Origin: a virus
Length of the DNA: 25,123 nucleotides
Virus record (IMG/VR): IMGVR_UViG_3300012979_000178
Strand: one strand, 5' to 3'
Shown: positions 9,996 through 23,429 of the stretch, piece by piece
Numbering within the stretch: position 1 is the stretch's first letter
Layout of the letters: each line of letters begins with the position of its first letter
Translations under genes and position numbers: made by a program
The notes under the pieces: model-generated
Told to the model about the DNA's origin: nothing
The model's database searches: none
The model's input: the letters and a program-made list of their open reading frames with translations, nothing else

Positions 9996-10042
9996 TTGGA
10001 CAATAGAATGTATTTATCCTTATTAAAAAATTAAATATAATA
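9996..10042 (+). promoter_or_regulatory. putative sigma-70-like promoter (TTGGACA ... TATAAT) upstream of 10077
   Basis: A -35-like TTGGACA with TATAAT at 10037-10042. The spacing is imperfect. Confidence 0.3.
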
Positions 10043-10076
10043 GAAAAAATATTTATTTTTAAAGGAGAAAATAAAA

Positions 10077-10811
10077 ATGCCTGAATTAAATTTAGCTGGA
10101 TCAAAAATAGGATTTTGGGATGTCTTAGAAAAAGATAGTGAAAAATCTAAAGAAAAACATTAGAGTTATTGGAAATGTAAATGTAATTTATGCGGAAATA
10201 TTTATTCTGTTAGAGGTTCAAGTTTAAATAATGGTCAAAGTCAAAAATGTGGAACCTGTTCTCGTTCTTACAATGTAAAAGATGAGACTGGGCAAAAATA
10301 TAATAAATTAACAGTTTTATATAAAACAGAGTCAAAAAATAATAGAGTAATGTGGAAATGTCGATGTGATTGTGGAAATCATATTGACGTAAGTGGAACT
10401 GATTTAAGGACTGGTGCAGTTAAATCTTGTGGAAAATGCCCAGGAAAAGAAAGCTTAGGAGAAAAATTAATTAGAGAAAAATTGACTCAATTTGGAATTG
10501 ATTTTATCCAAGAATATACTTTTAAAGATCTTATTTTTGAATCTGGTCATTATGCACGTTTTGATTTTTATATACCCTCTCATAATTATATAATAGAATT
10601 TGATGGTATCCAACATTTTAACTATGATAATAACTCTTCTTGGAATACAGAAAAAAATTTTTTAGAAACAAAAAAACGAGATAGTATAAAGAATAATTAT
10701 TGTTTTAATCATAATATTCCAATAATTAGAATTCCTTATGATTATAAAGAGGAGTTAACTGCTTTTGATTTAATTCCTCAAACTTCTAAATTTTTAATTA
10801 AGAAAGGGTGA
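10077..10811 (+). CDS. triple zinc-ribbon (W-x-C-x-C-x-CG ... SCGxC repeats) plus C-terminal DUF559/Vsr-like PD-(D/E)xK endonuclease domain; one in-frame TAG at 10161
   Basis: RBS AAAGGAGAAAAT and ATG at 10077. The frame is continuous with track ORF 10350..10811 apart from the TAG. The C-terminus reads FDFYIP..IIEFDGIQH ... RDSIK...NIPIIRIPY, which fits the DUF559 pattern. It is paralogous to 12336..13187. Confidence 0.6.
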
Positions 10812-10817
10812 AAAATA

Positions 10818-12248
10818 ATGTCAACTCATTGTGGATATGTGGTAAATATTAAAGAATTAAGACCTCACTCTAATGCAGATAAACTTCAAATAGCAACTTT
10901 TTTTGGTAATGATACTTGTGTGGGACTTGATGTAAAATTAGATGATATTGGAATTTATTTTCCCTCTGATTTACAACTTTCTGTAGAATTTTGCGAACAG
11001 CATAATCTTGTTCGCCGTAAGGATGACAGCGGTAACAACGTTGGTGGATATCTTGATCCCGACAAAAGAAACATTCGCACTATAAAACTTCGTGGTGAGA
11101 AGAGTGATGGTCTATTTATGCCTCTTCAGTGCCTCGCTTATACTGGCATTAATCTTGATGACCTTAATATTGGAGATCGTATTGATATTGTAAATGGGCA
11201 TGAAATTTGTAAGAAATATATCCCTCGCTCCAATAGACGTAAAGGTTCTTATTCCGAGGGCAATAAGACTCGTAAACATAAAGTTCCTGTTGCTCCGCTC
11301 TTTGCGGAACACGCAGATACAGAACAACTTGCTTATAATCTTAATGCCTTTAAAGCGGGCGACCAAATTGAAATTACTTTAAAAATGCACGGTACTAGCC
11401 ATCGTGTTGGCTATCTTGAAACCCTTCAGGGATATAAAAGAACATTTGCGGATAAAATTTTCCGGCGTGAAGGTACTCCAGAATATAATTGGGGTTATGT
11501 TGCTGGAACTCGTAGAACTGTTCTCGAAGATTATAATGGCGGTTATTATGGCAGCAACGAGTTTAGAGAAGTACATACTAAATTTTTCAATGGCAAACTT
11601 TGGAAGGGTGAAACTGTATATATGGAAATTGTAGGTTTCACTAATGATGGTACTCCTATTATGTCCAATTGCGAAAACAAAAAATTAAATGATAAAGATT
11701 TTATTAAGCAGTATGGAGATATTACCGTCTTCTCTTATGGTTGCGATCCTGCTGGATATACAGAACTTCCTATGAAAGATACTGGATTGCCTTATGGCGC
11801 AGTAGTTTCTGTTCCAAAATCAGAAATTTACGTATATCGTATGACTATGACTAATGAAGATGGTAATATAGTAGAATACACCCCTGACTTTATGAGATAT
11901 CGTTGCGAACAGATGGGCGTTAAAACTGTCCCTGTTCTTTGGAAAGGTTTTATTCCTTATACTATAGATGATGTTGAATCTGCCATTCCCGGTCATAGAA
12001 TTATACTTAAAGAAGGAGAAAGTGCCGGAGAATGGATTAAAAATGTTGCCGAGCAATATTACGATGGTCCAGATCCGGTTGGTAAGACTCATACTCGAGA
12101 AGGCGTTGTAGTAAGAATTATAAATCGTCCTAAATTCTGTGCTTATAAGCACAAAAATCATTCATTTAAGATGGTTTCTGGAATTATTACTGAGGCCGTT
12201 GCGGATAGCAATATTGAAATTAGCGAAGATATTTTAGCAGAACTTTAA
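10818..12248 (+). CDS. RNA ligase (Rnl2-type nucleotidyltransferase motif KMHGTS) fused to an N-terminal EMAP/Myf-type tRNA-binding OB fold
   Basis: The N-terminal VVNIKELRPHSNADKLQIATF matches the tRNA-binding-domain signature (HPNADKL). Motif I is K-x-H-G-T-S, as in T4 Rnl2 (KIHGTN). There is a GC jump at about 10985. Confidence 0.75.
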   Translation: MSTHCGYVVNIKELRPHSNADKLQIATFFGNDTCVGLDVKLDDIGIYFPSDLQLSVEFCEQHNLVRRKDDSGNNVGGYLDPDKRNIRTIKLRGEKSDGLFMPLQCLAYTGINLDDLNIGDRIDIVNGHEICKKYIPRSNRRKGSYSEGNKTRKHKVPVAPLFAEHADTEQLAYNLNAFKAGDQIEITLKMHGTSHRVGYLETLQGYKRTFADKIFRREGTPEYNWGYVAGTRRTVLEDYNGGYYGSNEFREVHTKFFNGKLWKGETVYMEIVGFTNDGTPIMSNCENKKLNDKDFIKQYGDITVFSYGCDPAGYTELPMKDTGLPYGAVVSVPKSEIYVYRMTMTNEDGNIVEYTPDFMRYRCEQMGVKTVPVLWKGFIPYTIDDVESAIPGHRIILKEGESAGEWIKNVAEQYYDGPDPVGKTHTREGVVVRIINRPKFCAYKHKNHSFKMVSGIITEAVADSNIEISEDILAEL

Positions 12249-12265: not shown

Positions 12266-12302
12266 TTGATTAATTTTAAAGTCTTAAATGGCATAATATA
12301 AT
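12266..12302 (+). promoter_or_regulatory. promoter (TTGATT ... TGGCATAATATAAT) upstream of 12336
   Basis: An extended -10-like TGGCATAAT/TATAAT. It is flanked by an 11-bp direct repeat TTTAAAGTCTT. Confidence 0.4.
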
Positions 12303-12335
12303 GAAAGAAAAGTATTTTTAGAAAGGATTTATATT

Positions 12336-13187
12336 ATGCCATTTAAAGATAGAACTAATATAAAATATGGAAAATTAACTGCAAAAGAATATTTAGGTAA
12401 AAGTATGTGGAAATGCATTTGTGATTGTGGTCAAGAAAAAATCGTGTATGGAGGCCACTTGGAAAGTGGTCATACTTAGTCATGTGGTTGTATTCGTCCT
12501 CCAAGAACTAAATTATATGGACAAAAATTTGGTAGATTAACAGTATTAAACTGGGAAGGAAACGGCAAGTGGCGTTGTCAATGCGAATGCGGAAATGAAG
12601 TATTGGTTCAAACCGATAATTTAAAATCTGGCAATACCAAATCTTGTGGCTGCTTACAAAAAGACAAAGCAAGTGACGCATCATTCATTTCTCTTGTTGG
12701 TAATCGTTATGGAAAACTTTTAGTAATTGAACGAGTAGAAAATAATCGTTTTGGACATGTATGCTATCGCTGTAAGTGCGATTGTGGTGGTGAAACTATT
12801 GTTGATGCTACAAACCTACGTAATGGCAATACCAATTCCTGTGGTTGTATTAAATCCAAAGGAGAAATGATTATCAACAACTGGTTACTAGAACATAATT
12901 TCGATTTCCGCAGTCAATATTCTTTTGACGATTGTATTTTATCTACCGGCCGCAGACCTTTTTTCGACTTCGTTTTATTCAAGAATGATAAACCATATCT
13001 TGTGATAGAATATAACGGCCGCCAACATTACGAAGTAACCGGCGGATGGAACACAGAAGAGCAGTTTGCTAAAACACAACGCCGTGATAGCGAAAAACTA
13101 CAATGGTGTGAAGATAATCACTATCCAATATTGATAATAAAATATGATGAAGATATTGAAAAAATATTGGAGGAAAGATTATTATGA
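12336..13187 (+). CDS. paralogue of 10077..10811: triple zinc-ribbon plus DUF559/Vsr-like endonuclease; one in-frame TAG at 12477
   Basis: RBS GAAAGGATTTATATT and ATG at 12336. It is in frame with track ORF 12603..13187 and shares the repeat pattern W.C.C.CG...N(T/S)(K/N)SCGC. The C-terminus reads FFDFVLF...LVIEYNGRQH...RRDSEK. Confidence 0.6.
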
Positions 13188-13695: not shown

Positions 13696-14253
13696 ATGAA
13701 GATTGTAATTGTTGTTGATTTACAAAATGATTTTATTACAGGCTCTCTTGGTTCCACCGAAGCGCAGGCTATTATTCCAAATGTAAAAGACCATCTGCGG
13801 TCATTAGATGAAAAAGATCATGTAATTTTTACCATGGATACTCATTTTGATGACTATCTTGAAAGCGGTACTTTGGAAAGCGAAAAGCTTCCCATTAAGC
13901 ATACCATTAAAGGAACTGATGGTTGGCTAATTTTTGAAGATTTAACCTCTTTGCCTCCGGGACCGCAGACATTGGCACCAAAGCAGACTTTTTGCTCTTG
14001 GGATTTTGATAGTGTTATTGTAGACGAAGTTTGTAATTATCTTAAAAATAATGAAAATCTTGAAAAAGATCTAGAATTTGAAATTTTTGGAGTTTGTACT
14101 GATATTTGCGTTGTTTCTATCGCCCTTTATCTAAGATCTTTTTATCCTAGTGTTAAAATCACTTGCCTTAAAGATCTTTGCGCGGGCTCTTCTCCTGCGG
14201 CACATGAAGCTGCTTTGACTGTTATGAAATCTTGTATGATTGATATTACGTAA
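13696..14253 (+). CDS. pncA: nicotinamidase (PncA), isochorismatase family
   Basis: N-terminal VVDLQNDF, a conserved Lys region (IKHTIKGTDGW) and GVCTDICV carrying the catalytic Cys. Confidence 0.75.
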   Translation: MKIVIVVDLQNDFITGSLGSTEAQAIIPNVKDHLRSLDEKDHVIFTMDTHFDDYLESGTLESEKLPIKHTIKGTDGWLIFEDLTSLPPGPQTLAPKQTFCSWDFDSVIVDEVCNYLKNNENLEKDLEFEIFGVCTDICVVSIALYLRSFYPSVKITCLKDLCAGSSPAAHEAALTVMKSCMIDIT

Positions 14254-14267
14254 ACGGAGGAATGATT

Positions 14268-15176
14268 ATGCCAGTACATGACGATCTTGGAACTCGCATG
14301 AAAGAGTTCTATGAACAAGTCCCACGTTTTCGATTAACTAGAAGAATGCCCGTGGTAATTAGACTCGACGGGAAATCCTTCCACACCTTTACACGCGGTT
14401 TTGAAAAGCCATTTGATGAAGTGCTTGGTAGAGCGATGCGAGAGACTATGAAATATCTTTGTGAGAATATTCAGGATTGCGTCCTTGGATATACTCAATC
14501 CGATGAAATTACTTTAATTCTTGTTGACTATAAAGAATTAAATAGTTCTGCTTGGTTTAATTATGAAATTCAAAAAATGTGTTCTATTTCTGCTTCTATG
14601 GCAACTATGGTATTTAATAAATTTTTTGAAAAAGAAGTTAATAAATGGACAAACCAAGCTTTTCCAACTGATTATTTAGGATATAATACTGGGAAAATTT
14701 CAGTTGCTGATATTGAACTAAAAGGTACTTATATAAAATCTCTCAATAAAGGCGCAATGTTTGATTCTCGTTGTTTTAACATTCCAAAAGAAGAAGTAGC
14801 CAATTTGATCTATTGGCGACAACTAGATGCTACGCGTAATTCTATTCAAATGGTAGGTCAAGCTAATTTCTCTCATAAAGAACTTCAAAATAAATCTTGT
14901 AATGATATTCAAAATATGCTTTTTGAAAAGAAAAATATTAATTGGAATGATTTCCCAACTCACTTAAAACGTGGCTCTTGTTGCGTTAAAATAGAGACTT
15001 CTACTGTTTTTGCTATCGAGCATGAAGACGGTACTGTTGAAACTGGTGCCGTTGAGCGACCTCATTGGGAAATTGATCTGGAAATTCCGATCTTCAAAAA
15101 TGAAGGACGAGAATATATTAATCGTCGTATTCTTTATAAAGAAAAGCCTGAAACAACTATTGCTTATATTAATTAA
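14268..15176 (+). CDS. Thg1-like protein (TLP), a 3'-5' nucleotidyltransferase acting in tRNA 5'-end repair or addition
   Basis: VVIRLDGKSFHTF...KPFD...DCVLGYTQSDEITL matches the Thg1 core (VVRLDGRNFHRF...AYGQSDEYSF). The start was chosen at 14268 because its spacing to GGAGG is better than for the ATG at 14262. Confidence 0.75.
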   Translation: MPVHDDLGTRMKEFYEQVPRFRLTRRMPVVIRLDGKSFHTFTRGFEKPFDEVLGRAMRETMKYLCENIQDCVLGYTQSDEITLILVDYKELNSSAWFNYEIQKMCSISASMATMVFNKFFEKEVNKWTNQAFPTDYLGYNTGKISVADIELKGTYIKSLNKGAMFDSRCFNIPKEEVANLIYWRQLDATRNSIQMVGQANFSHKELQNKSCNDIQNMLFEKKNINWNDFPTHLKRGSCCVKIETSTVFAIEHEDGTVETGAVERPHWEIDLEIPIFKNEGREYINRRILYKEKPETTIAYIN

Positions 15177-15271: not shown

Positions 15272-15433
15272 ATGAATCTTGATGATACAATTAAAAGAAT
15301 AAAAAGCGATGTTGCCGAGATTAGTTCTAAAATGATGACTGGAAAAACTATTGAAGAACAAGTTAAAGAAATTGTACTAAAAGATAGTGGTAAAAAAGTA
15401 AAAAATTCTATTATAGGTAAAAATATAAAATGA
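15272..15433 (+). CDS. small 53-aa hypothetical protein
   Basis: RBS AAAAGGAATTTATAAAA and ATG at 15272, which is in frame within track ORF 15209..15433. Its TGA overlaps the next start. Confidence 0.4.
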   Translation: MNLDDTIKRIKSDVAEISSKMMTGKTIEEQVKEIVLKDSGKKVKNSIIGKNIK

Positions 15434-15960
15434 ATAATTTTCAAAAATTTTTTGGTCACTTACACACAGTAAATAAACATCGCTTTATAGTTTGTAAACT
15501 ATGCTTTAAATGCGGTTTATATTGGCAAGGACTTACCCATGATCTTTCTAAATATTCGCCAGTAGAATTTATCAATGGTGTAAAATTTTATACTGGAAAA
15601 GCCTCTCCTCATCTTGGTGAACGAAAAGCATATGGATATAGCAAGGCTTGGTTAAATCACAAAGGACGCAATAAGCACCATGGAGAATATTGGCAAGATA
15701 TTGGATCAGATGGATTTACTCATCCCATTGATATGCCAAAAAATTATCTTATTGAAATGATTTGTGATAGAGTCGCGGCTTCAATGATTTATCTTGGAGA
15801 AAATTATACAGATAAAGCACCTTTGGAATATTATCAAAGCCATAAAGATGAAAATCAATTTAGTGATTATACAAGATTTTATTTAGAAGAATATTTAACA
15901 AATATCGCTAATTATGGTTTTGATGCTGCTATGAAGAGTAAAACTACATATAAATGCTAA
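15430..15960 (+). CDS. small HD-domain-like phosphohydrolase
   Basis: H...H (GHLHTVNKH), then THDLSK about 28 aa later, then HHGEYWQD...D. This fits HD motifs I-V. Confidence 0.55.
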   Translation: MNNFQKFFGHLHTVNKHRFIVCKLCFKCGLYWQGLTHDLSKYSPVEFINGVKFYTGKASPHLGERKAYGYSKAWLNHKGRNKHHGEYWQDIGSDGFTHPIDMPKNYLIEMICDRVAASMIYLGENYTDKAPLEYYQSHKDENQFSDYTRFYLEEYLTNIANYGFDAAMKSKTTYKC

Positions 15961-15987: not shown

Positions 15988-16440
15988 ATGAAACTTGAAA
16001 TTGATCTTGATCTTAATAAAATTGACTATGATTCTATTAATAAATAGATAAAACAAAAAATTGAAGATTTAGATATTGCTAATGTTTATACTATTGATGA
16101 TAGAATTAAAAATGAATTAAATGCTCAGATTAGCCAAGTAATTAATGAAAATATGTATCGAAATTATTGGTCTAATACATTAGATAATAAAACCGAAGGA
16201 CATATTCAAGACGAGCTAAGAATTCTCATTAAAGAAGCAATAACCCCATCAGTGAATAATGTTTTTAATAAAATTTCAGAAGAAGAAATAGAAAAAATGA
16301 TTTTACATATTCTTCCGAAAGCATTAGTTATGCTACTGATAGATAATCTTAAAGGTTCACTTTATTCTTTACAAAATGACCAAACCTACTTAATGGAATC
16401 AGTTATAGAAAATCATATAAACCGTAGATTAAATAGATAA
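15988..16440 (+). CDS. hypothetical protein with one in-frame TAG at 16045
   Basis: Strong RBS AGGAGAAAATTAA and ATG at 15988. It is in frame with track ORF 16153..16440. Confidence 0.5.
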
Positions 16441-16454
16441 GGAAATTAATAATT

Positions 16455-17690
16455 ATGATGAAACTTTCTCCTATTATTACTCATCTTACCGATACTGACC
16501 TTTATAAATTTACTATGTTACAGACTATGTTTCATAGACATACAAATCTTAATGGCACTTATCTTTTTAAATGCCGAAACGCAGGAGTTAAATTTACCAA
16601 AGAAATGATGGATGAGATCAATGCGCAGATTGATCATCTTTGTACTTTGCGCTTTACAGATGAAGAACTTGATTATCTTGGCTCTTTACGCTTTATTAAG
16701 CCTGATTTTATTGAATTTCTTCGCATTTGGCATCCTTTGCGCAGATATGTAAATTGTTATATTTATGATCATCCGGGATGTCCAGATGAAGGAGAACTTT
16801 TTGTCGAAGTTCATGGTCCACTCTTTAACACTATGATGTTTGAAATTTATCTTCTTGCTATTGTAAATGAAGTATATTTTCGTATGAAGTATAATTATCT
16901 TGACCTCATTAATGGCGCGAGAGAAAAACTTTACCACAAACTTAGCGGATTTAATCATTTTGATGAAGAAGGCAATAAAGCCCCTCTCTATACTTTTAAA
17001 TTTGCGGAATTTGGTACCAGAAGAAGATTAAGTCGTGAATGGCAGGATTATGTAATGAAAGAACTTATTGCTACTGGATATTGCGCCGGTACCTCTAACG
17101 TATATCTTGCTATGAAATATGGTATCAAAGCAATTGGTACTTATGCGCATGAATATGTTCAGATGTTTCAGGGTATTCCCGGCATTCAGCTTGCTTATAC
17201 CAACAAAGCCGCTCTTGAAGAATGGTTTGAAGAATATCAGGGCGACCTTGGAACTGCATTGACTGATACTCTTGGCACTGATATTTTTCTTCGTGATTTT
17301 AATAAACTTCAAGCTATGTGTTATACCGGAGTACGTCATGATAGTGGAGATCCTTATGAATGGGGCGAAAAGATTATCGAACACTATCTTAAACTCGGCA
17401 TCGACCCCAAAACCAAAACTCTTCTTTTTAGTGATAGTCTCGATTTTGAAAAAGCACAGGCAATTTATGACCATTTTAATGGGCGTATTAATGTAAGTTT
17501 TGGTATTGGTACTTATCTTACTAATGACACAGGAGTAAATCCCCTCAATATCGTTATTAAACTTCAGTATGTAAATGATCATCCAGTAGCAAAATTAAGC
17601 GACGTAGAAGGCAAAACTATGTGCCAAGATGAAAATTATGCTAATTACTTGGCACGCGCAGTTAATTATAGATTAGAAGAAGGTATTTAA
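16455..17690 (+). CDS. pncB: nicotinate phosphoribosyltransferase (PncB)
   Basis: It tracks E. coli PncB closely: TDLYKFTM, FGTRRRLSREWQ, GTSNVYLA, GTYAHE, RHDSGDP.EWGEK, GIDPKTK.LLFSD, FGIGT.LT, PLNIVIKL, PVAKLSD. Confidence 0.9.
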   Translation: MMKLSPIITHLTDTDLYKFTMLQTMFHRHTNLNGTYLFKCRNAGVKFTKEMMDEINAQIDHLCTLRFTDEELDYLGSLRFIKPDFIEFLRIWHPLRRYVNCYIYDHPGCPDEGELFVEVHGPLFNTMMFEIYLLAIVNEVYFRMKYNYLDLINGAREKLYHKLSGFNHFDEEGNKAPLYTFKFAEFGTRRRLSREWQDYVMKELIATGYCAGTSNVYLAMKYGIKAIGTYAHEYVQMFQGIPGIQLAYTNKAALEEWFEEYQGDLGTALTDTLGTDIFLRDFNKLQAMCYTGVRHDSGDPYEWGEKIIEHYLKLGIDPKTKTLLFSDSLDFEKAQAIYDHFNGRINVSFGIGTYLTNDTGVNPLNIVIKLQYVNDHPVAKLSDVEGKTMCQDENYANYLARAVNYRLEEGI

Positions 17691-17691
17691 T

Positions 17692-18204
17692 ATGAATTTC
17701 ATTTTTCGAGGATTCGAAATAAATCCAAAAGGCAAGGAAAAAATTTATATCAACAATAAAGAACTTCTAGGTGATTGGCACGAAGGATATTTTACTCGAT
17801 ATGCGAGAACTGCTGTCGTAGGAGTCCCTGTAATTGAAACAGAATGGGATAGTTATGTTATTGATGAACGAACCATTTGTCCTTGCCTTTCTTATATTGA
17901 TTCTAAAGGAAAACATTTTGGTCATATGGACATAATCACTTGTATTGACGCAAATGATGAAATTGATAAATTTTTACTTCAATGGAATAGTGAGGGACAA
18001 GAATTCCAAGTTATTTTCTTAAATTGCCAAGAAAAATTATATGGAACTAATACAAGCTATTTTATTAGTTTTGATTTTTTTGATTGGGCTGAATTTGTAG
18101 CAAACGTTCTTCAAAATATCCACGGAATTTATAAATCTATTGAAATAACTAATAATGCTTTTTCTGATCCTAATTTTTTTAAAAAAGGAATTATTCCGTG
18201 GTAA
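17692..18204 (+). CDS. hypothetical protein translationally coupled between pncB and nadM
   Basis: Its ATG lies 1 nt after the pncB TAA. I recognised no motif. Confidence 0.6.
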   Translation: MNFIFRGFEINPKGKEKIYINNKELLGDWHEGYFTRYARTAVVGVPVIETEWDSYVIDERTICPCLSYIDSKGKHFGHMDIITCIDANDEIDKFLLQWNSEGQEFQVIFLNCQEKLYGTNTSYFISFDFFDWAEFVANVLQNIHGIYKSIEITNNAFSDPNFFKKGIIPW

Positions 18205-18236: not shown

Positions 18237-18800
18237 ATGTTTGGAGCAATTTTGTTTAGGGCACAGCCCTTTCACAATGGACATTTGCATATGATTAAAA
18301 CTGCTTATGCCGATTGTAAAAAATTTGGTATAGATTTATATATTTTTATTGGTAGCGCAGATAAATATGGTACTAAAAGAAATCCTTTACCTATTGAGCT
18401 AAGAAGAAATTTAGTAATTAATTCTTTAAATGAATATTTTTCTGAAGAAGAATTAAATCATATTTATGTATTTACTCTTGATGATCTTAGCGATGAAGCA
18501 AATAACACTTACGCTTGGGGAGATTATTTATATATTAAAATGTGTTCTAAAGCTAATGATCCAGAATTTATTTTTTACTATAGTGATAAACCTTCTATTG
18601 TGTTAAGTTGGTTTGCTCCAGATTTATGTAAAAATATAATGTATAAATTTTTACCGCGTTATCATACAATTAATGCTACTGCAATAAGAGAAGCTATTAT
18701 TGATAATGAATTTTGTCCTAATTGGTTGGAATATGATATACCAGAAACGGTAATAGCAGAATACAATACTATCAGAGAATATTTATTGGAGGCTATTTAA
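18237..18800 (+). CDS. nadM: NadM-type nicotinamide/nicotinate mononucleotide adenylyltransferase (cytidylyltransferase fold, HxGH)
   Basis: FRAQPFHNGHLHMIK and IFIGSADK...NPLP match archaeal NadM (GRFQPFHKGHL; IGIGSAQ). Confidence 0.75.
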   Translation: MFGAILFRAQPFHNGHLHMIKTAYADCKKFGIDLYIFIGSADKYGTKRNPLPIELRRNLVINSLNEYFSEEELNHIYVFTLDDLSDEANNTYAWGDYLYIKMCSKANDPEFIFYYSDKPSIVLSWFAPDLCKNIMYKFLPRYHTINATAIREAIIDNEFCPNWLEYDIPETVIAEYNTIREYLLEAI

Positions 18801-19531
18801 TGAAAGATTTAGTGCAAGATATAATTAAATGGATTAAAGAATATTTTGAAATGTCCCCTCCTAATACAAAAGCAGTAATTGGGATTTCCGGAGGCAAAGA
18901 TTCAACCATTGCTACTGCGCTTTTGGTTGAAGCCTTAGGTAAAGATAGAGTAATTGGAGTACGAATGCCCCAGGGTGTTCAATCTGATATTGATATGGCT
19001 AGAGAAGTATGTGATTATTTTGGTATTGAATCTTATGAAATCAATATTGGAAATATTTGTGAAACTTTATATCAGACTATTGGAGAAAATTATAAAGAAA
19101 ATCCAGTAGTTTCTACTAATACTCCAGCAAGAATACGTATGACTATTCTATATGCTATTGCTGGAATGTATAATGGTAGAGTTGTTAATACTTCAAATGC
19201 TTCTGAAATTTTTATAGGTTATTCAACTAAAAATGGCGATGGCGCAGGAGATTTTAGTATTACACGCGATTTTACTGTAAGAGAATTAAAAAAAATCGGT
19301 TATTATCTTGGACTTCCTAAAAAATTTATTGACAAAATTCCCGAAGATGGAATGAGTGGTAAGACTGATGAAGAAAAATTAGGTTTTTCATATGAGGTAA
19401 TAGATGATATTTTGATGTATAATGAATTTCCTGATGAAGCTCTTACCCAAAAGATTACTAATTTATACACCAAAAATTTACATAAAATTTCTCCAATGCC
19501 ATATTATTATAATAAGGGGTATTTAGAATGA
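18800..19531 (+). CDS. nadE: NH3-dependent NAD+ synthetase (NadE)
   Basis: PP-loop GISGGKDS; overall NadE-like. The start overlaps the nadM stop. Confidence 0.85.
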   Translation: MKDLVQDIIKWIKEYFEMSPPNTKAVIGISGGKDSTIATALLVEALGKDRVIGVRMPQGVQSDIDMAREVCDYFGIESYEINIGNICETLYQTIGENYKENPVVSTNTPARIRMTILYAIAGMYNGRVVNTSNASEIFIGYSTKNGDGAGDFSITRDFTVRELKKIGYYLGLPKKFIDKIPEDGMSGKTDEEKLGFSYEVIDDILMYNEFPDEALTQKITNLYTKNLHKISPMPYYYNKGYLE

Positions 19532-19977
19532 TTAATAAATTTGAAGGAGATTATGAATTTTTAAGTAATTTTTTCTTTTCTCCTTTTTCTTTTAAAGGAA
19601 TTGAATATCCAACTAATGAACATTTCTTTCAAGCTATGAAAACTGTTGATCGAAATCTTCAAAAAGCAATTGCTCAGGCGCCAACCCCGGGTAAAGCTAA
19701 AAGATTAGGACGTCAAGTAAATTTAATACCGGATTGGGAAACTATTAAAGACGCCGTAATGTATCAAGGACTAAAATTAAAATTTTCTGATCCAATTCTT
19801 AAAGAAAAACTTTTAGCAACAGGAAATGAAAAATTAGAAGAAGGAAATTGGTGGCATGATAATTTTTGGGGTAATTGCTACTGCCCAAAGTGTAAAAACA
19901 TTGAAGGGGTAAATAAACTTGGCAAATTACTTATGCTTCTTAGAAAGGAGCTAAAAAATGAACAAAGCAACACGTAA
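19528..19977 (+). CDS. NADAR (YbiA-like) domain protein
   Basis: F.G.Y.FLSNF..S.F...G..Y.T.EH.FQA.K...AK..GR...W, which is the NADAR pattern. ATGA overlap with nadE. Confidence 0.75.
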   Translation: MINKFEGDYEFLSNFFFSPFSFKGIEYPTNEHFFQAMKTVDRNLQKAIAQAPTPGKAKRLGRQVNLIPDWETIKDAVMYQGLKLKFSDPILKEKLLATGNEKLEEGNWWHDNFWGNCYCPKCKNIEGVNKLGKLLMLLRKELKNEQSNT

Positions 19978-20585: not shown

Positions 20586-21275
20586 ATGGCTGTATATGCT
20601 TTATCTGACTTACATGGTAATAAAGAATTATTTAAAAAGGTTAAATCTTTTTTAAATGAAAAAGATACAGTATATTTTCTTGGGGATGCTGCTGATAGAG
20701 GTCCTGATGGTTGGGAACTTATTAAAACAATTTATGAAGACTCTCAATTTATTTACGCTAAAGGCAACCACGAAGATATGCTTGTAAATTCTATTAAAGA
20801 ATTCTGTGAAATGAATTCCAAAAGTGGAGATTGTGATTTACTTTTTTACAACGGCGGTAAACAGACCTTTAATGCTTGGCGTAAAGATGGGGCAAAGAAG
20901 AGTTGGGCTACCAAGCTTGAAAAATTACCGGCTTGGCTTGCTTATATTAATACTAAAGGTCAGCTTATCAGTATGAGTCATGCTGGTTTTACTCCAAAAC
21001 CCAACGAATTTCCTTCTCATAGTGATTTAATGTGGAGTAGAGATCACTTTCTTGATGATTGGGATGAAGAGGTAAAAAATTGTATTATTGTTCATGGACA
21101 TACTCCTATTCTTTTTCTTGCAGAAGATTTAAAAATCAAAGAAGAAGAACTTGAGCTTAAACCGTTATGGTATTGTAATAACAAAAAGGTTTGTATTGAT
21201 TTGGGCGCGCATATGACTAATGCCACAACTCTTTTAAATCTTGATACATTTGAATATTATTTGTTTCAAGTCTAA
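20586..21275 (+). CDS. lambda-PPase-family metallophosphoesterase (Ser/Thr phosphatase or polynucleotide 2',3'-phosphatase type)
   Basis: Motifs SDLHGN, GDAADRG, GNHE, W.RD and HGHT are present. The architecture resembles lambda PPase and the CthPnkp phosphatase domain. Confidence 0.8.
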   Translation: MAVYALSDLHGNKELFKKVKSFLNEKDTVYFLGDAADRGPDGWELIKTIYEDSQFIYAKGNHEDMLVNSIKEFCEMNSKSGDCDLLFYNGGKQTFNAWRKDGAKKSWATKLEKLPAWLAYINTKGQLISMSHAGFTPKPNEFPSHSDLMWSRDHFLDDWDEEVKNCIIVHGHTPILFLAEDLKIKEEELELKPLWYCNNKKVCIDLGAHMTNATTLLNLDTFEYYLFQV

Positions 21276-21285
21276 TAATTAATTT

Positions 21286-21321
21286 TGATTTTATATTATA
21301 AAAATGTTATAATATATATAT
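21286..21321 (+). promoter_or_regulatory. conserved promoter copy 9
   Basis: TTGATT, 17 nt, TGTTATAATATATATA. Confidence 0.7.
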
Positions 21322-21342
21322 CAAATGAAAAGGAAATAAAAA

Positions 21343-21816
21343 ATGAAAAAAATTTATTTACTTTGTGGTATTCCCGGTTCAGGAAAAAGCACTTGGGCAA
21401 AAAGCCAACTTGATAATAAATCTGTCTGGATTTCAAGAGATCAGATAAGATTCTCTATGGTTTCAGAGTCAGAAGAATATTTCTCTAAAGAAAAAGAAGT
21501 ATTTCGAGAATTTATTAAAGAAATTAATTTAGCAATTAGAAATAAAAATTTTGATAATATTTATATAGATGCAACACATCTTAACACTATAAGTAGATAT
21601 AAAGTTTTGGATAAAATTGCTTTAAAAGATGTTGATGAACTTAATATTATTTTCTTTAATACCCCTTTGAATATTTGTCTCGAAAGAAACTCTTATCGTT
21701 TTGGAAGAGAAAAAGTACCAGAAGAAGTAATTAAAAAAATGTATAAAACTGTTGTTCCTCCTCATCTTGATGATAAATATTTATATAATAATATTATAGT
21801 AAAAGGAGATGAATAA
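21343..21816 (+). CDS. pnk: polynucleotide 5'-kinase, a P-loop domain of the T4 Pnk kinase type
   Basis: LLCGIPGSGKST (Walker A), RD (catalytic Asp region), and a C-terminus with LERNSYRFGREKVPEEVIKKMYK that resembles T4 Pnk ([22 protein letters not shown]). Confidence 0.8.
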   Translation: MKKIYLLCGIPGSGKSTWAKSQLDNKSVWISRDQIRFSMVSESEEYFSKEKEVFREFIKEINLAIRNKNFDNIYIDATHLNTISRYKVLDKIALKDVDELNIIFFNTPLNICLERNSYRFGREKVPEEVIKKMYKTVVPPHLDDKYLYNNIIVKGDE

Positions 21817-21819
21817 ATA

Positions 21820-21855
21820 TTGATTTGGCTTTGTAGCGATTGGCATTTTAATTAA
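21820..21855 (+). pseudogene. 11-codon remnant of a metallophosphoesterase N-terminus ((M)IWLCSDWHFN*), duplicated downstream at 22864
   Basis: A TTG start 11 nt after AAGGAG. The peptide carries the MPE motif I (D-W-H) and is nearly identical to MAIWITSDWH at 22864..22893. Confidence 0.4.
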
Positions 21856-21922
21856 AATGCCGGTCAAAACACAATAAAATATTTAGAACAATTTTCTAAT
21901 TTAATTAAGAGGTGATGTTAAA

Positions 21923-22861
21923 ATGTATAGTGTATATAAAATTACCAATATTATAAATTAGAAAAATTATATTGGTTCAAGTATTAGACCTGAAAAGCGT
22001 TGGAAAGAACATATTAATAATGCTAATAACCCAAATTCATAGGCATATAATTATCCGTTACAATGTGCTTTTCGAAAATACGGAATTGAAAATTTTAATT
22101 TTGAAATTTTAAAAGATGATTTTAATACTCAAAGTGAAATGACAGAATATGAATAGTTAATGATTATTTTTTATGATTCATTGAATAATGGGTATAATCA
22201 AACTTTACAAACAAATTAGAGTGAAATAGCAAAAGAAAATTTAGAAAAATATTTATAGACAATTCGTTGTAAATGTGCTAAAATAGATAAAAATAATAAT
22301 ATTTTAGAAATTTATAATTCTTATCATGAAGCTGCTAAAAAAAATGGAATGGATCCTGATAATTGTGCTAGTTCAATTAGAGATGTTTGTAAAGGAAAAA
22401 CTTCAAGTGCTAAAGATAAATTTATTTTTCGAGATTTAGATGCTAATGATAATATAATTATTTAGCCGTTTAAACCCTATAAAGGCAAAAAAGCAATAAT
22501 TGGTATTCATATAGAAACAAAAGAAGAAATTTATTTTAATTCTATTAGTGAAGCAGCTAAAATATTAAATACAGATCGTTGGAGTATAACCCAATGTATA
22601 CAAGGAGTATCTCGATACTCCAAAGTTAAAAACTATATATTTAGAGAATTAGATTAGAATGGCAATATTGTAGAAGTTGAAAATTCCATAGAAAATATTT
22701 TACAAAAATATAATTAGACAAATCCGGAAATAAATGGTGAAAGACACACTTTTAAAGACTGGTGTAAAATTTATGGAATTTCTGAAAGTTCTGTTAGAAA
22801 AAGAATAAAAAAAGGAATGGGTGTTGTAGAAGCAATTACAACCCCAAAAGAGAGGTGATTT
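21923..22861 (+). CDS. GIY-YIG homing endonuclease (I-TevI/Seg-like) with 8 in-frame TAG codons
   Basis: The N-terminus VYKITNIIN*KNYIGSS...EKRWKEHI corresponds to the GIY-YIG and RWKEH motifs (compare I-TevI IYQIKNTLNNKVYVGS...EKRWKRHF), followed by NGYN. The frame is continuous for 313 codons apart from the TAGs. It ends at the TGA at 22859. Confidence 0.7.
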
Positions 22862-22863
22862 TT

Positions 22864-23429
22864 ATGGCAATCTGGATTACTTCAGATTGGCATTAGTTTA
22901 TTTTTGCCATGACAGAGAATTTATCTGGGGTCCAAGGCATTTTAATTCTGTTGAAGAAATGAATGAAACTATTGTAGATAGACATAATTCTTTGGTTCTT
23001 CCAGAAGATGATGTATATGTATTGGGCGATTTGATGCTTAATGATAATGAAAAAGGTATTGAATTAATTAAGCGTATGAATGGTAAACTTCATATTGCTA
23101 TTGGAAACCATGACACAGCACCAAGAATTGAATTGTATAAAACTTTACCGAATTTAGTAGATATTAATTACGTTCACACATTTAAATATAGAAAATATAA
23201 TTTCTATTGTTCTCATTATCCTACATTAACAGGAAATCTTGAAGCTGAATCGCTTCATCAAGTAGCAATTAATCTATATGGACATACTCATCAGTCGAGT
23301 AAATTCTATGAAGATAGACCATATATGTTTCATTGTGGTATGGATTCAAATGCTTGTTATCCTGTAAATATTGATTACATTATTGATAAGTGTAAAAATA
23401 AAGTGGCTGAATGCATTGAAATGCTTTAA
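22864..23429 (+). CDS. calcineurin-like metallophosphoesterase with a frame disruption after codon 10. It is a possible pseudogene, sequencing indel or recoding site.
   Basis: RBS AGAGAGG and ATG at 22864 give MAIWITSDWH (motif I D-x-H), then a TAG. The remaining motifs (GDLML, GNHD, GHTH) are in the -1 frame, which is track ORF 22887..23429. Confidence 0.55.

Follow-up and report, generated by a model that had tools for sequence, protein, structure and literature searches.

A metallophosphoesterase gene split at a UAG codon in a TAG-recoded phage and about 20 phage lineages: a candidate short ribosomal hop within a possible RNA end-healing locus

The stretch of DNA considered here, IMG/VR virus record IMGVR_UViG_3300012979_000178 (25,123 nucleotides, referred to in its full length as the window), comes from an AT-rich phage with every gene on the + strand, and contains between positions 22864 and 23429 a gene for a small metallophosphoesterase (MPE) whose first ten codons and whose remaining 176-codon frame lie in different reading frames, separated by a UAG codon and a few further nucleotides. 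The same arrangement recurs in 33 distinct alleles from about 20 phage lineages, and on balance it would seem best explained by a hop of the ribosome, in which the peptidyl-tRNA-His would leave a CAU codon, pass over the UAG and re-pair with the message 7-8 nt further on. The parts of the gene are as follows.

22864-22893, + strand: first open reading frame (ORF1) of the MPE, MAIWITSDWH (ATG GCA ATC TGG ATT ACT TCA GAT TGG CAT), closed by a TAG stop at 22894-96.
22868-22889, + strand: hairpin CAAUCUGGA-UUAC-UUCAGAUUG, extended by pairing of AUG (22864-66) with CAU (22891-93); -17.9 kcal/mol, z -3.3.
22894-22898, + strand: coding gap TAG TT, comprising the UAG right after the take-off codon and a 2-nt spacer (1 nt in most other lineages).
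22899-22901, + strand: proposed landing codon TAT (YAY in all alleles).
22902-23429, + strand: body of the MPE (FCHDREFIWGPRHF ... ECIEML, stop TAA at 23427-29), with motifs GD, GNHD, SHYP and GHTH; phrog_547, 2.6e-42.

ORF1 is preceded by a ribosome-binding site (RBS), GAGAGG at 22850-55, ahead of the ATG at 22864, and the take-off codon is proposed to be its last, CAT at 22891-93, which specifies the catalytic His of DxH. The body (YFCHDREF...) is in another frame, offset by the 8 nt of TAGTT plus TAT. Since an independent assembly (ENA ERZ27246411, 99.98% identity) has the identical junction, this is not an assembly error. In the original prediction the phosphoesterase gene was interrupted by a homing endonuclease and resumed at 22864; a homing endonuclease gene (HEG) is indeed present, at 21923-22858, but 22864 proves to be a second complete start rather than a point of resumption, and the body that follows is 8 nt off-frame.

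Junction patterns were used to scan IMG/VR, JGI and ENA metagenomes, and the bacterial and archaeal genomes of GTDB. A first, broad scan with a 15-nt pattern gave mostly chance matches among the matches listed, and later patterns were more specific. The 33 distinct alleles that these scans yielded, some with a HEG and some without (loci are cited below by L numbers), include MPE subfamilies only 25-38% identical to the window protein; the GTDB genomes contributed one real junction match, on a small contig binned in a Woesearchaeota metagenome-assembled genome, the rest being chance matches. The architecture runs ...SD.H, TAG, 1-2 nt, YAY, and then F.H... in the shifted frame. The take-off codon is CAT in 32 alleles and CAC in one, the spacer is C in 15, G in seven, T in six and TT in five (thus 1 nt in 28 and 2 nt in 5), and the landing codon is TAT in 11, CAT in nine, TAC in eight and CAC in five, with nothing else represented. 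When the landing codon was left unspecified in a scan, YAY was found in every real MPE match, whereas chance matches had arbitrary codons there; YAY is the codon set able to pair with the tRNA-His anticodon GUG when G-U pairs are allowed. The TAGTT gap of the window is also that of L246, L297, L298, L299 and L300, and the 8-nt form of the junction is common to the window and L297-L300, the bodies of the latter having 74-93% protein identity to that of the window. In public gene calls for L246, L298, L299 and L300 the product begins either at an internal Met (156-158 aa) or at a chance TTG, and as a result the split structure is hidden in protein databases. No published description of this element was found in the searchable literature.

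That the two frames need to be joined at all is seen most readily from the protein. In 61 uninterrupted homologues the motifs that define the MPE superfamily (DxH, GD, GNH[DE], H and GHxH) are invariant, as are the individual residues D7, H9 and H12, with no indel between them; uninterrupted relatives read M..IW.TSD.HF.H (the L302 allele, for instance, has ...GATTGGCATTTCTGCCAT...), and the cultured, annotated phage homologues that were inspected (Phass-1, Stab23 and MT837973) are all uninterrupted. The window MPE has the DxH part encoded in a different frame from the remaining motifs, and characterised metallophosphoesterases cannot do without the Asp and His of that motif, as is established for lambda phosphatase and CthPnkp (PMC2190708). 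The N-terminus in frame 0 is kept as protein, IW[ILVF]TSD[WL]H, in every lineage, with one synonymous GAT to GAC change, and 20 of 27 representative alleles have, ahead of the landing codon, neither ATG nor GTG nor TTG in frame with the body; given the invariance of D7, H9 and H12, this lack of body-frame starts implies that the frame-0 N-terminus must be joined to the body. It appears likely that some recoding event achieves this.

Nor does the body look like that of a gene in decay. In all 33 alleles it is free of stops and frameshifts, and its GD, GNHD, H and GH.H motifs are intact. The alleles L165 and L167, where the junction is endonuclease-free and the flanks are syntenic, differ at 20 nt but at only 3 aa (ratio of nonsynonymous to synonymous substitution rates, dN/dS, 0.035), the corresponding ratio for L206 and L217, which share a junction, is 0.079, and L300 has lost the GIY-YIG half of its HEG while retaining both the junction and an intact MPE. 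Judged by these comparisons, the body is under purifying selection despite the junction.

The junction alleles also have in common a hairpin in the mRNA that ends at the take-off codon. In the window the full pairing is AUG-G-CAAUCUGGA-UUAC-UUCAGAUUG-G-CAU, so that the start codon is paired with the take-off codon, and the 3′ arm consists of the codons directly upstream of the latter. An equivalent, covarying hairpin is present in all junction alleles, and the uninterrupted alleles are without it: over the 36 nt ending at the His codon, the mean minimum free energy is -11.5 kcal/mol for junction alleles of the window family as against -2.9 kcal/mol for 27 uninterrupted relatives, while the hairpins of distant subfamilies are stronger (-20 to -23 kcal/mol, z -4 to -7). 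The 5′ arm differs in sequence from lineage to lineage but is always complementary to the S-D-x-H codons (covarying arm pairs are TCCGACACAC/GTGTGTCGGA, GCTGACACCC/GGGTGTCAGC and TCTGATACGC/GCGTATCAGA), and it is this complementarity that gives rise to odd N-terminal peptides such as x-C-R and x-C-Q. In a test set in advance, which compared the 10 nt up to and including the C of the take-off codon with the upstream 43 nt, the mean complementarity was 9.0/10 in 24 junction alleles, against 7.0 for shuffles and 6.7 for uninterrupted alleles (Mann-Whitney p = 3e-9). While the UAG is in the A site the 3′ arm would take up roughly the 10-12 nt upstream of the P site, still inside the ribosome; being in the exit path, it would gain one further base pair, freed to form, with each nucleotide of forward slide, a geometry that would favour a hop. 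Exit-side pairing of this kind has been put forward as what drives bypassing onward in T4 gene 60 (bioRxiv 10.1101/2024.12.09.627546).

The decoding that we propose would have four steps. The ribosome would pause with peptidyl-tRNA-His on CAU and the UAG in the A site; the hairpin (22864-22893) would re-zip behind the ribosome, pulling the mRNA forward; the tRNA-His would unpair, slide 8 nt (7 in most other lineages) and re-pair on UAU (CAY or UAY elsewhere); and decoding would restart at UUU to give ...SDWH-FCHDREF..., an exact match to the uninterrupted homologues. Such a 7-8-nt hop over the UAG is preferred as the best explanation, with rather more confidence than doubt, on the grounds that one mechanism would cover all the variants and restore the consensus protein exactly; since D7, H9 and H12 are without an indel in the 61 homologues, only a hop landing on YAY restores the SD.HF.H spacing. 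Take-off and landing codons readable by the same tRNA, as bypassing requires, are present in 33/33 alleles (CAY and YAY), the match being at wobble level (G-U, codon position 1) in 19/33. The conserved mRNA structure that is also expected of bypassing is present as the covarying hairpin ending at the take-off codon, though in a placement unlike that of the take-off stem-loop of gene 60. Between 10 and 25 residues precede take-off, and they contain no conserved peptide beyond the enzyme's own IWxTSDxH.

How such a junction might have arisen is suggested by the DNA immediately upstream of it, where three features have to be considered.

21820-21855, + strand: dead stub of the resident MPE N-terminus, LIWLCSDWHFN followed by a stop, from a TTG start; homologous to uninterrupted relatives up to about 21849.
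21842-21861, no strand: perfect 20-nt palindrome GGCATTTTAATTAAAATGCC at the left insertion junction, where the homology of the stub to the resident gene stops.
21923-22858, + strand: GIY-YIG + NUMOD HEG of 311 codons, 8 of them in-frame TAG, ending in TGA.

The original prediction put the 5′ end of the phosphoesterase gene at the TTG at 21820, right after the kinase gene, and this is borne out, in that LIWLCSDWHFN matches the N-terminus MIWLCSDWHFCH of uninterrupted relatives (86-90% identical; such relatives begin ATGATTTGGCTTTGTAGTGATTGGCATTTCTGCCAT). Elsewhere the equivalent stub is decayed (L190, where it contains a stop), frameshifted (L221) or absent (L063, L164, L165 and most other lineages). 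The palindrome is probably a fold-back repair scar at an endonuclease break; L206 and L221 have similar CATTTTAAT/AAAATG junctions at its position, and as it closes the stub a few bases past the His codon, it suggests that the cut site of the endonuclease lies there.

The HEG itself has the domains PF01541 (3.5e-8), PF22083 and PF07453, and it is identified as a GIY-YIG homing endonuclease by its catalytic and NUMOD/helix-turn-helix modules together with its patchy presence at one genomic site. Its eight in-frame TAG codons, of which the original prediction made no mention, stand mostly opposite Gln or Lys in relatives, and there is no other in-frame stop; among the window, L298 and L299 the TAG positions are conserved, with omega 0.05-0.11 and synonymous divergence (dS) 0.17-0.31, the genes having diverged under continued selection. 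The gene is present in the window, L009, L190, L206, L257, L298 and L299; L297 has an N-terminally truncated or altered copy and L300 a truncated one, and close relatives such as L302 lack it; junction alleles without an intact copy include L063, L164, L165/L167, L221, L244, L300 and most distant subfamilies. A first tblastn search of IMG/VR with the HEG found only distant endonucleases in other contexts. On this basis a mobile cassette consisting of a leader, the HEG, a replacement RBS and the replacement N-terminus MAIWITSDWH would have been inserted in the first codons of the MPE gene, leaving the resident N-terminus only as the dead stub at 21820-21855; with the gap at the most likely cut site, the resulting allele would probably be immune to its own endonuclease.

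Among other explanations, a programmed frameshift fares best, although we regard it as unlikely. The ribosome would move +1 at CAU-U-AGN, and AGN and YAY would then be translated to give SD.H-(S/R)-(H/Y)-F.H, with two extra residues. Exactly +1 is what 28/33 junctions need, the C/T spacer variants within one cluster would be synonymous AGC/AGT Ser codons, the H/Y at the "landing" site could be a conserved aromatic residue, and a stop in the A site combined with a 5′ element pulling the mRNA are classic +1 stimulators (general knowledge; review PMC5009743). However, the 8-nt form found in the window and four diverged relatives needs +2 or -1 rather than +1, and the sole plausible site for a -1 slip, a run of U, is not conserved (L300 has TTTATTTCGG). 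There is moreover no re-pairing of tRNA-His at AUU, the invariant H9-x-x-H12 spacing, in which 61 homologues have no indel, would be longer in the product, and the constant YAY would be left as an extra codon without a reason. Three specific variants were rejected in the course of this comparison: a simple +1 frameshift as the general mechanism, which fails on the 8-nt form of five diverged genomes; a -1 slip on the U run once TAG has been read as Gln, given the lack of conservation of that run in L300; and a landing on the second His codon, CAT at 22908-10, which would delete the invariant H12 segment.

A different possibility, in our view quite unlikely, is that the body is translated separately, by internal or non-canonical initiation or by termination-reinitiation following the 10-codon ORF, with the hairpin acting as an initiation regulator, or as a terminator or attenuator between the HEG and the MPE; the enzyme would then either do without its N-terminal Asp or have it supplied in trans. 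The window hairpin was flagged as terminator-like and encloses the start codon, there is in the window a TTG four codons upstream of the landing codon, and L267 has an in-frame ATG. As against this, the body frame offers no canonical start in 20/27 alleles, DxH has an Asp and a His that are both invariant in this family and essential in characterised enzymes (PMC2190708), every lineage conserves the frame-0 N-terminus at the protein level, and the tail 3′ of the hairpin is not U-rich in most lineages.

It might also be supposed that the MPE is simply inactive, the cassette having broken the gene and spread by homing, so that the bodies are intact merely through recent acquisition. Homing endonucleases are able to spread deleterious alleles, and among the 8-nt alleles the HEGs are less diverged than the MPE bodies, indicating horizontal spread. 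We nevertheless think this very unlikely: none of the 33 alleles has a stop or frameshift in the body, many are endonuclease-free and yet under strong purifying selection (the dN/dS values of 0.035 and 0.079 given above), and neither the covarying hairpin nor the constraint to YAY would be explained in a dead gene.

Removal of the 7-8 nt from the RNA, by editing or by cleavage and religation, perhaps at the hands of the phage's own kinase, phosphatase and ligase, is highly improbable; the richness of the locus in RNA end-processing genes is circumstantially in its favour, but no bacterial or phage mechanism is known that excises 7-8 nt from mRNA, some junction loci have no detected kinase or ligase gene nearby, and the YAY rule indicates pairing between codon and anticodon. 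Least probable of all, to the point where it need hardly be entertained, is a self-splicing group I-like intron carrying the HEG, with the stub at 21820 as an exon 1 joined to the body by splicing: introns commonly encode the GIY-YIG endonucleases of phages, 21838-21863 can be folded into a P1-like hairpin that includes U-G pairs and a U...G splice pair in L009 would yield a perfect protein, but Rfam gives no match at the gathering threshold, nor at E up to 10 over 21700-23000, the roughly 115 nt of non-ORF sequence are too short for a group I core, analysis by hand found no splice pair restoring the consensus protein in the window, and the stub has a stop in L190, a frameshift in L221 and is missing in L063, L164, L165 and most others, all of which keep the junction. 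Both group I and group II introns were rejected on these Rfam negatives, on the lack of a restoring splice pair and on the decayed or absent "exon 1" of the relatives.

All this said, several considerations weigh against the hop over the UAG. It must be remembered that it has been deduced from sequence alone, and that every scan pattern demanded TAG, so that the presence of TAG in all alleles was set by the design of the search. The landing codon is UAY in 19 alleles and the fully cognate CAY in 14, which is not what maximal landing efficiency would predict, while His/Tyr is a conservative exchange, so a translated insert of two residues would be compatible with the YAY feature taken alone. 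With take-off after only 10-25 codons, a nascent-peptide signal of the gene 60 type is unlikely, and unassisted short hops in E. coli are inefficient. Since TAG is a sense codon in the lineage of the window, a suppressor tRNA would compete with hopping; the product of read-through in frame 0 would be a 32-aa peptide. The window hairpin sequesters the start codon and, with its U-rich tail, resembles a weak intrinsic terminator (a resemblance that the tails of most other lineages, not being U-rich, do not share). Finally, among the 8-nt alleles the dS of the MPE (0.5-1.1) exceeds that of the endonuclease (0.2-0.3), implying that part of the divergence of these alleles is older than the acquisition of the cassette, and a crippled allele could be kept going for a while by endonuclease drive.

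To the wider reading of which the hop forms part, we would give about even chances: that these loci represent a widespread, unrecognised class of hopping, powered by a zipper hairpin, which originated in the immunity of a homing cassette, persists after loss of the HEG, and would confine MPE synthesis to an early phase. The element would have spread as the half of a homing-endonuclease cassette that confers immunity, and would have outlived the endonuclease. As regards timing, in TAG-reassigning phages the jump would be set against decoding by a suppressor tRNA, and one might speculate that the MPE would then be made only in an early phase of infection in which the standard code still applies.

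To our knowledge, the record of efficient bypassing in nature comes down to T4 gene 60 with its homologues, essentially a single phage gene family, and to one group of yeast mitochondria. The T4 gene 60/mobA cassette was reportedly described by Huang in 1988 and by Bonocora in 2011. The present locus would be a small-scale version of it, and the likeness extends to the HEG in an enzyme gene, the replacement coding segment, the UAG right after the take-off codon, the landing codon for the same tRNA, the presence of one or more mRNA stem-loops, the loss of the HEG in some genomes with the gap kept, and the position of the gap at the presumed endonuclease target; gene 60 cassettes have been described as having a UAG after the take-off codon, one tRNA for both codons and a homologous replacement segment, and as keeping the bypass after endonuclease loss (bioRxiv 10.1101/2022.08.31.505936). 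The differences are nonetheless considerable. The gap here is 4-5 nt (total shift 7-8), compared with 50 in gene 60 (20 in one clade), and the target is a metallophosphoesterase rather than a topoisomerase; take-off is at codon 10-25, which leaves no room for a long nascent-peptide signal, and the single conserved hairpin extends 5′ from the take-off codon, at which it ends, whereas the gene 60 stem-loop starts there. There is no sequence similarity, the endonuclease here is of the GIY-YIG type, and the present phage reads TAG as sense.

Shorter natural counterparts of bypassing with matched codons have been described as "long presumed" though still to be found (PMC5009743). The "stop-hops" and +5/+6 hops engineered in E. 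coli (Weiss et al. 1987; PMC5009743) resemble the junction in having matched codons around a stop and re-pairing a few nt further on, but those were low-efficiency laboratory constructs with no natural utilised case, whereas the junction is natural, conserved and frame-changing, and has its own hairpin. With the +1 frameshifts of prfB (RF2) and antizyme it shares an A-site stop as the pause and a 5′ stimulator, and NNU-UAG-N resembles CUU-UGA-C, but in those cases the shift is of one base to an overlapping codon, the 8-nt form here goes beyond +1, and the extra YAY has no counterpart. The "byps" of Magnusiomyces mitochondria (Lang 2014; Nosek 2015, in PMC5009743) are likewise mobile short inserts with matched codons and a slow A-site codon, but they are 27-55 nt long, GC-rich and mitochondrial, and have no associated endonuclease gene.

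Turning to the enzyme itself, the MPE belongs to the small family phrog_547, which is distinct from the phosphatase of Pnkp. An AlphaFold2 model of a close relative (P0002; predicted local distance difference test, pLDDT, 96.8) has as its nearest fold Aquifex AQ665 (1XM7), followed by the MJ0936 phosphodiesterase, the MPE folds matched by the model being 1XM7 and 1S3L. Sequence motifs and model, with the motifs set on an alpha/beta sandwich, together identify the protein as a calcineurin-like metallophosphoesterase of the AQ665/MJ0936 class and a predicted enzyme; AQ665, the nearest solved fold, has no assigned function. Some uninterrupted homologues (P0019, P0021, P0023, P0029 and similar proteins of 252-272 aa) are longer by about 75 aa at the C-terminus, in a segment that has Cys motifs and closes with ...KRDPPDGG(Y/F)YG.

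Four other genes in the window bear on a possible role in the healing of RNA ends.

20586-21275, + strand: lambda-phosphatase-like binuclear metallophosphatase, with DLH, GDAADRG, GNHE, SHAG and VHGHTP in its sequence.
21343-21816, + strand: stand-alone Pnk-type polynucleotide 5′-kinase of 157 aa, with no T4-type DxDxT phosphatase domain.
10818-12248, + strand: RNA ligase, a candidate sealing partner; phrog_968, 5e-65.
14262-15176, + strand: Thg1-like protein (tRNA-His guanylyltransferase / tRNA 5′-end repair family); PF04446 3.8e-31, phrog_4717 1e-88.

The kinase had been predicted from its T4 Pnk motifs, including the C-terminal block, and this identification holds. Its top match among solved structures is the T4 polynucleotide kinase domain 1LY1 (also 1LTQ; E 4.5e-9), and further top matches are PSTK, Capnocytophaga Pnkp1 and the C. 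thermocellum Pnkp kinase, so that in profile terms it is not the generic AAA or adenylate-kinase-like protein that had been raised as the alternative; neither phosphoesterase is of the Mre11/SbcD family. Profile matches are to PF13671 (3.5e-16) and to phrog_505 "polynucleotide kinase" (7e-26), while the match to TIGR04075 (bacterial Pnkp; 3e-11, 42 bits) is under its cut-off of 750. In the HMMER alignment to 1LY1, over residues 1-137, GIPGSGKSTWA, ISRDQIR, DATHLN and ERNSYRFGREKVP...MYK are conserved, corresponding to the P-loop GxPGSGKSTWA, the RD..R motif and the RNS.R.G...VP..V...MYK block of T4 Pnk. The protein is thus Pnk-type in identity, with 5′-kinase activity predicted. It covers only residues 1-143 of the 301-aa T4 enzyme and has no fused C-terminal DxDxT acylphosphatase domain.

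The protein encoded at 20586, which had also been picked out as a separate lambda phosphatase-like gene, does match the corresponding profiles (PF00149, 1.4e-12; PDB 1G5B lambda phosphatase, 4.3e-10; phrog_246, 2.5e-33), and the ligase to which the original prediction pointed at 10818 is likewise confirmed as an RNA ligase, with weaker matches to PF09414 (26.9 bits, against a cut-off of 27) and to TIGR02306 (3e-11, under cut-off). The proposal that kinase and downstream phosphoesterase follow the domain logic of bacterial Pnkp, however, stands only in part. Against phrog_8238, a kinase-phosphatase-ligase fusion of 737 positions, the kinase aligns at 1-140 and the 20586 protein consecutively at 188-346, so that it is the upstream gene, not the downstream MPE of phrog_547, that is homologous to the phosphatase domain of Pnkp.

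In a set of 38 related IMG/VR loci, fetched with the MPE or the kinase as query, the MPE follows the kinase within about 170 nt in 29, which upholds the adjacency for which a comparison with relatives had been suggested, and the order phosphatase...kinase-MPE-flotillin is conserved, the lambda-like phosphatase usually lying upstream and a flotillin gene downstream. In L001/L002 a tandem pair of Pnk-like kinase paralogues (2982-3933) precedes the MPE. As in C. thermocellum Pnkp-Hen1 repair (PMC2190708, PMC3675462, PMC3902929), there is a P-loop 5′-kinase, a lambda-like binuclear phosphatase and a ligase, but instead of a single kinase/phosphatase/ligase polypeptide with a Hen1 partner these are three separate ORFs in the order phosphatase-kinase, the ligase lies 9 kb away, and no Hen1-like match was found among the window ORFs scanned; in addition, the kinase has an unrelated small MPE as its conserved neighbour. 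The system is like T4 Pnkp + Rnl1 tRNA repair in that the T4 kinase domain is the best solved match and the context is a phage with an RNA ligase; unlike T4 Pnkp, it has no DxDxT (HAD) 3′-phosphatase domain, and the metallophosphoesterases would have to supply the phosphatase function. An end-healing role for this RNA or polynucleotide end-processing set (lambda-like phosphatase, Pnk kinase, small MPE, RNA ligase and Thg1-like protein) is plausible from the families represented, and a share in it for the MPE is plausible from its gene neighbourhood. A protein of the Thg1-like, tRNA-His family is thus encoded in a phage whose proposed hopping tRNA is tRNA-His, but this is probably a coincidence.

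As to the surroundings, the gene order at the locus is NAD synthase (18800), a NADAR protein (19528), two small ORFs, the lambda-phosphatase-like gene (20586-21275), the 157-aa kinase (21343-21816), the 12-codon ORF (21820-21855), the GIY-YIG/NUMOD endonuclease (21923-22858), the 10-codon ORF closing in TAG (22864-22896), the 176-codon phosphoesterase frame up to 23429, and an SPFH/flotillin gene. Comparison of 20586-23429 with deposited phages by blastn gave no match, and nowhere in the window did an Rfam family reach its gathering threshold. This phage uses TAG as sense: long frames delimited by TAA or TGA hold 1-8 in-frame TAGs (156-635, 646-2601 with seven, 10041-10811, 12297-13187, 16380-17690, 17599-18204 and 21905-22858 with eight), and none of the long frames taken as genes uses TAG as its terminator. 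ARAGORN found no tRNA genes in the window, so the decoder of TAG is not encoded there.

Six-frame ORF-coverage tests of each locus, which are crude and should be taken as indicative only, were clear for TAG as sense in the family of the window, L254, L251 and L267, and gave no clear answer for the remaining junction-bearing lineages. The same crude test gave a large gain in coverage under TGA as sense at the junction loci L272 (0.52 to 0.93), L261, L263 and L294 (IMG/VR 3300045988 and related contigs), which suggests that TGA-recoded phages also bear the TAG junction. In several distant alleles of the L263/L272 type there is, some 38 nt 5′ of the take-off codon, a strong Shine-Dalgarno-like AAGGAGG inside the N-terminal mini-ORF, followed by a properly spaced GTG in a third frame.

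Some further features of the window may be recorded. On either side of the RNA ligase gene, ORFs 10077-10811 and 12336-13187 are homing-endonuclease-like (phrog_559/374/9084), with Zn-ribbon repeats, a C-terminal nuclease domain and in-frame TAGs in both; the reassigned TAG is thus used in three endonuclease-type genes of the window, and there are none in the adjacent phosphatase, kinase, NadE and NADAR genes. A near-complete set for NAD+ salvage and synthesis is present (13696-14253, 16455-17690, 18237-18800 and 18800-19531, plus NADAR at 19528-19977), its members including an isochorismatase/nicotinamidase-like protein, a nicotinate phosphoribosyltransferase, an NMNAT-like cytidylyltransferase-fold protein and NAD synthase, and this may be a counter to NAD-depleting host defence. 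The 849-aa product of frame 3231-5780 combines Major Vault Protein shoulder and repeat domains (PF11978 at 1e-20, PF17795) with a long coiled-coil tail; it has no PHROG match and is unusual in a phage. A DUF5662 protein (15430-15960; PF18907 at 1.7e-36) and a nucleotidyltransferase-like protein (6492-7418; phrog_388) share the early region with the ligase, kinase and phosphatase genes, and may be part of the same RNA-processing toolkit.

A practical outcome of these observations is that gene callers mis-annotate junction MPE genes as N-terminally truncated ORFs. For the phages concerned, which are TAG-recoded and of gut type, the trio of lambda-like phosphatase, Pnk kinase and small MPE, together with the RNA ligase and the Thg1-like gene, would constitute a split, Pnkp-like candidate toolkit for RNA repair. 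If the hop over the UAG is real, about 20 phage lineages would supply the missing class of short hops, in a minimal form consisting of a hairpin, a His codon, UAG, 1-2 nt and YAY, and the natural variation in spacer length, landing codon and hairpin would provide material for studying how refolding of mRNA on the exit side drives sliding. A homing endonuclease that moves together with a "bypassable" immunity insert would then also be known from a second, independent case.

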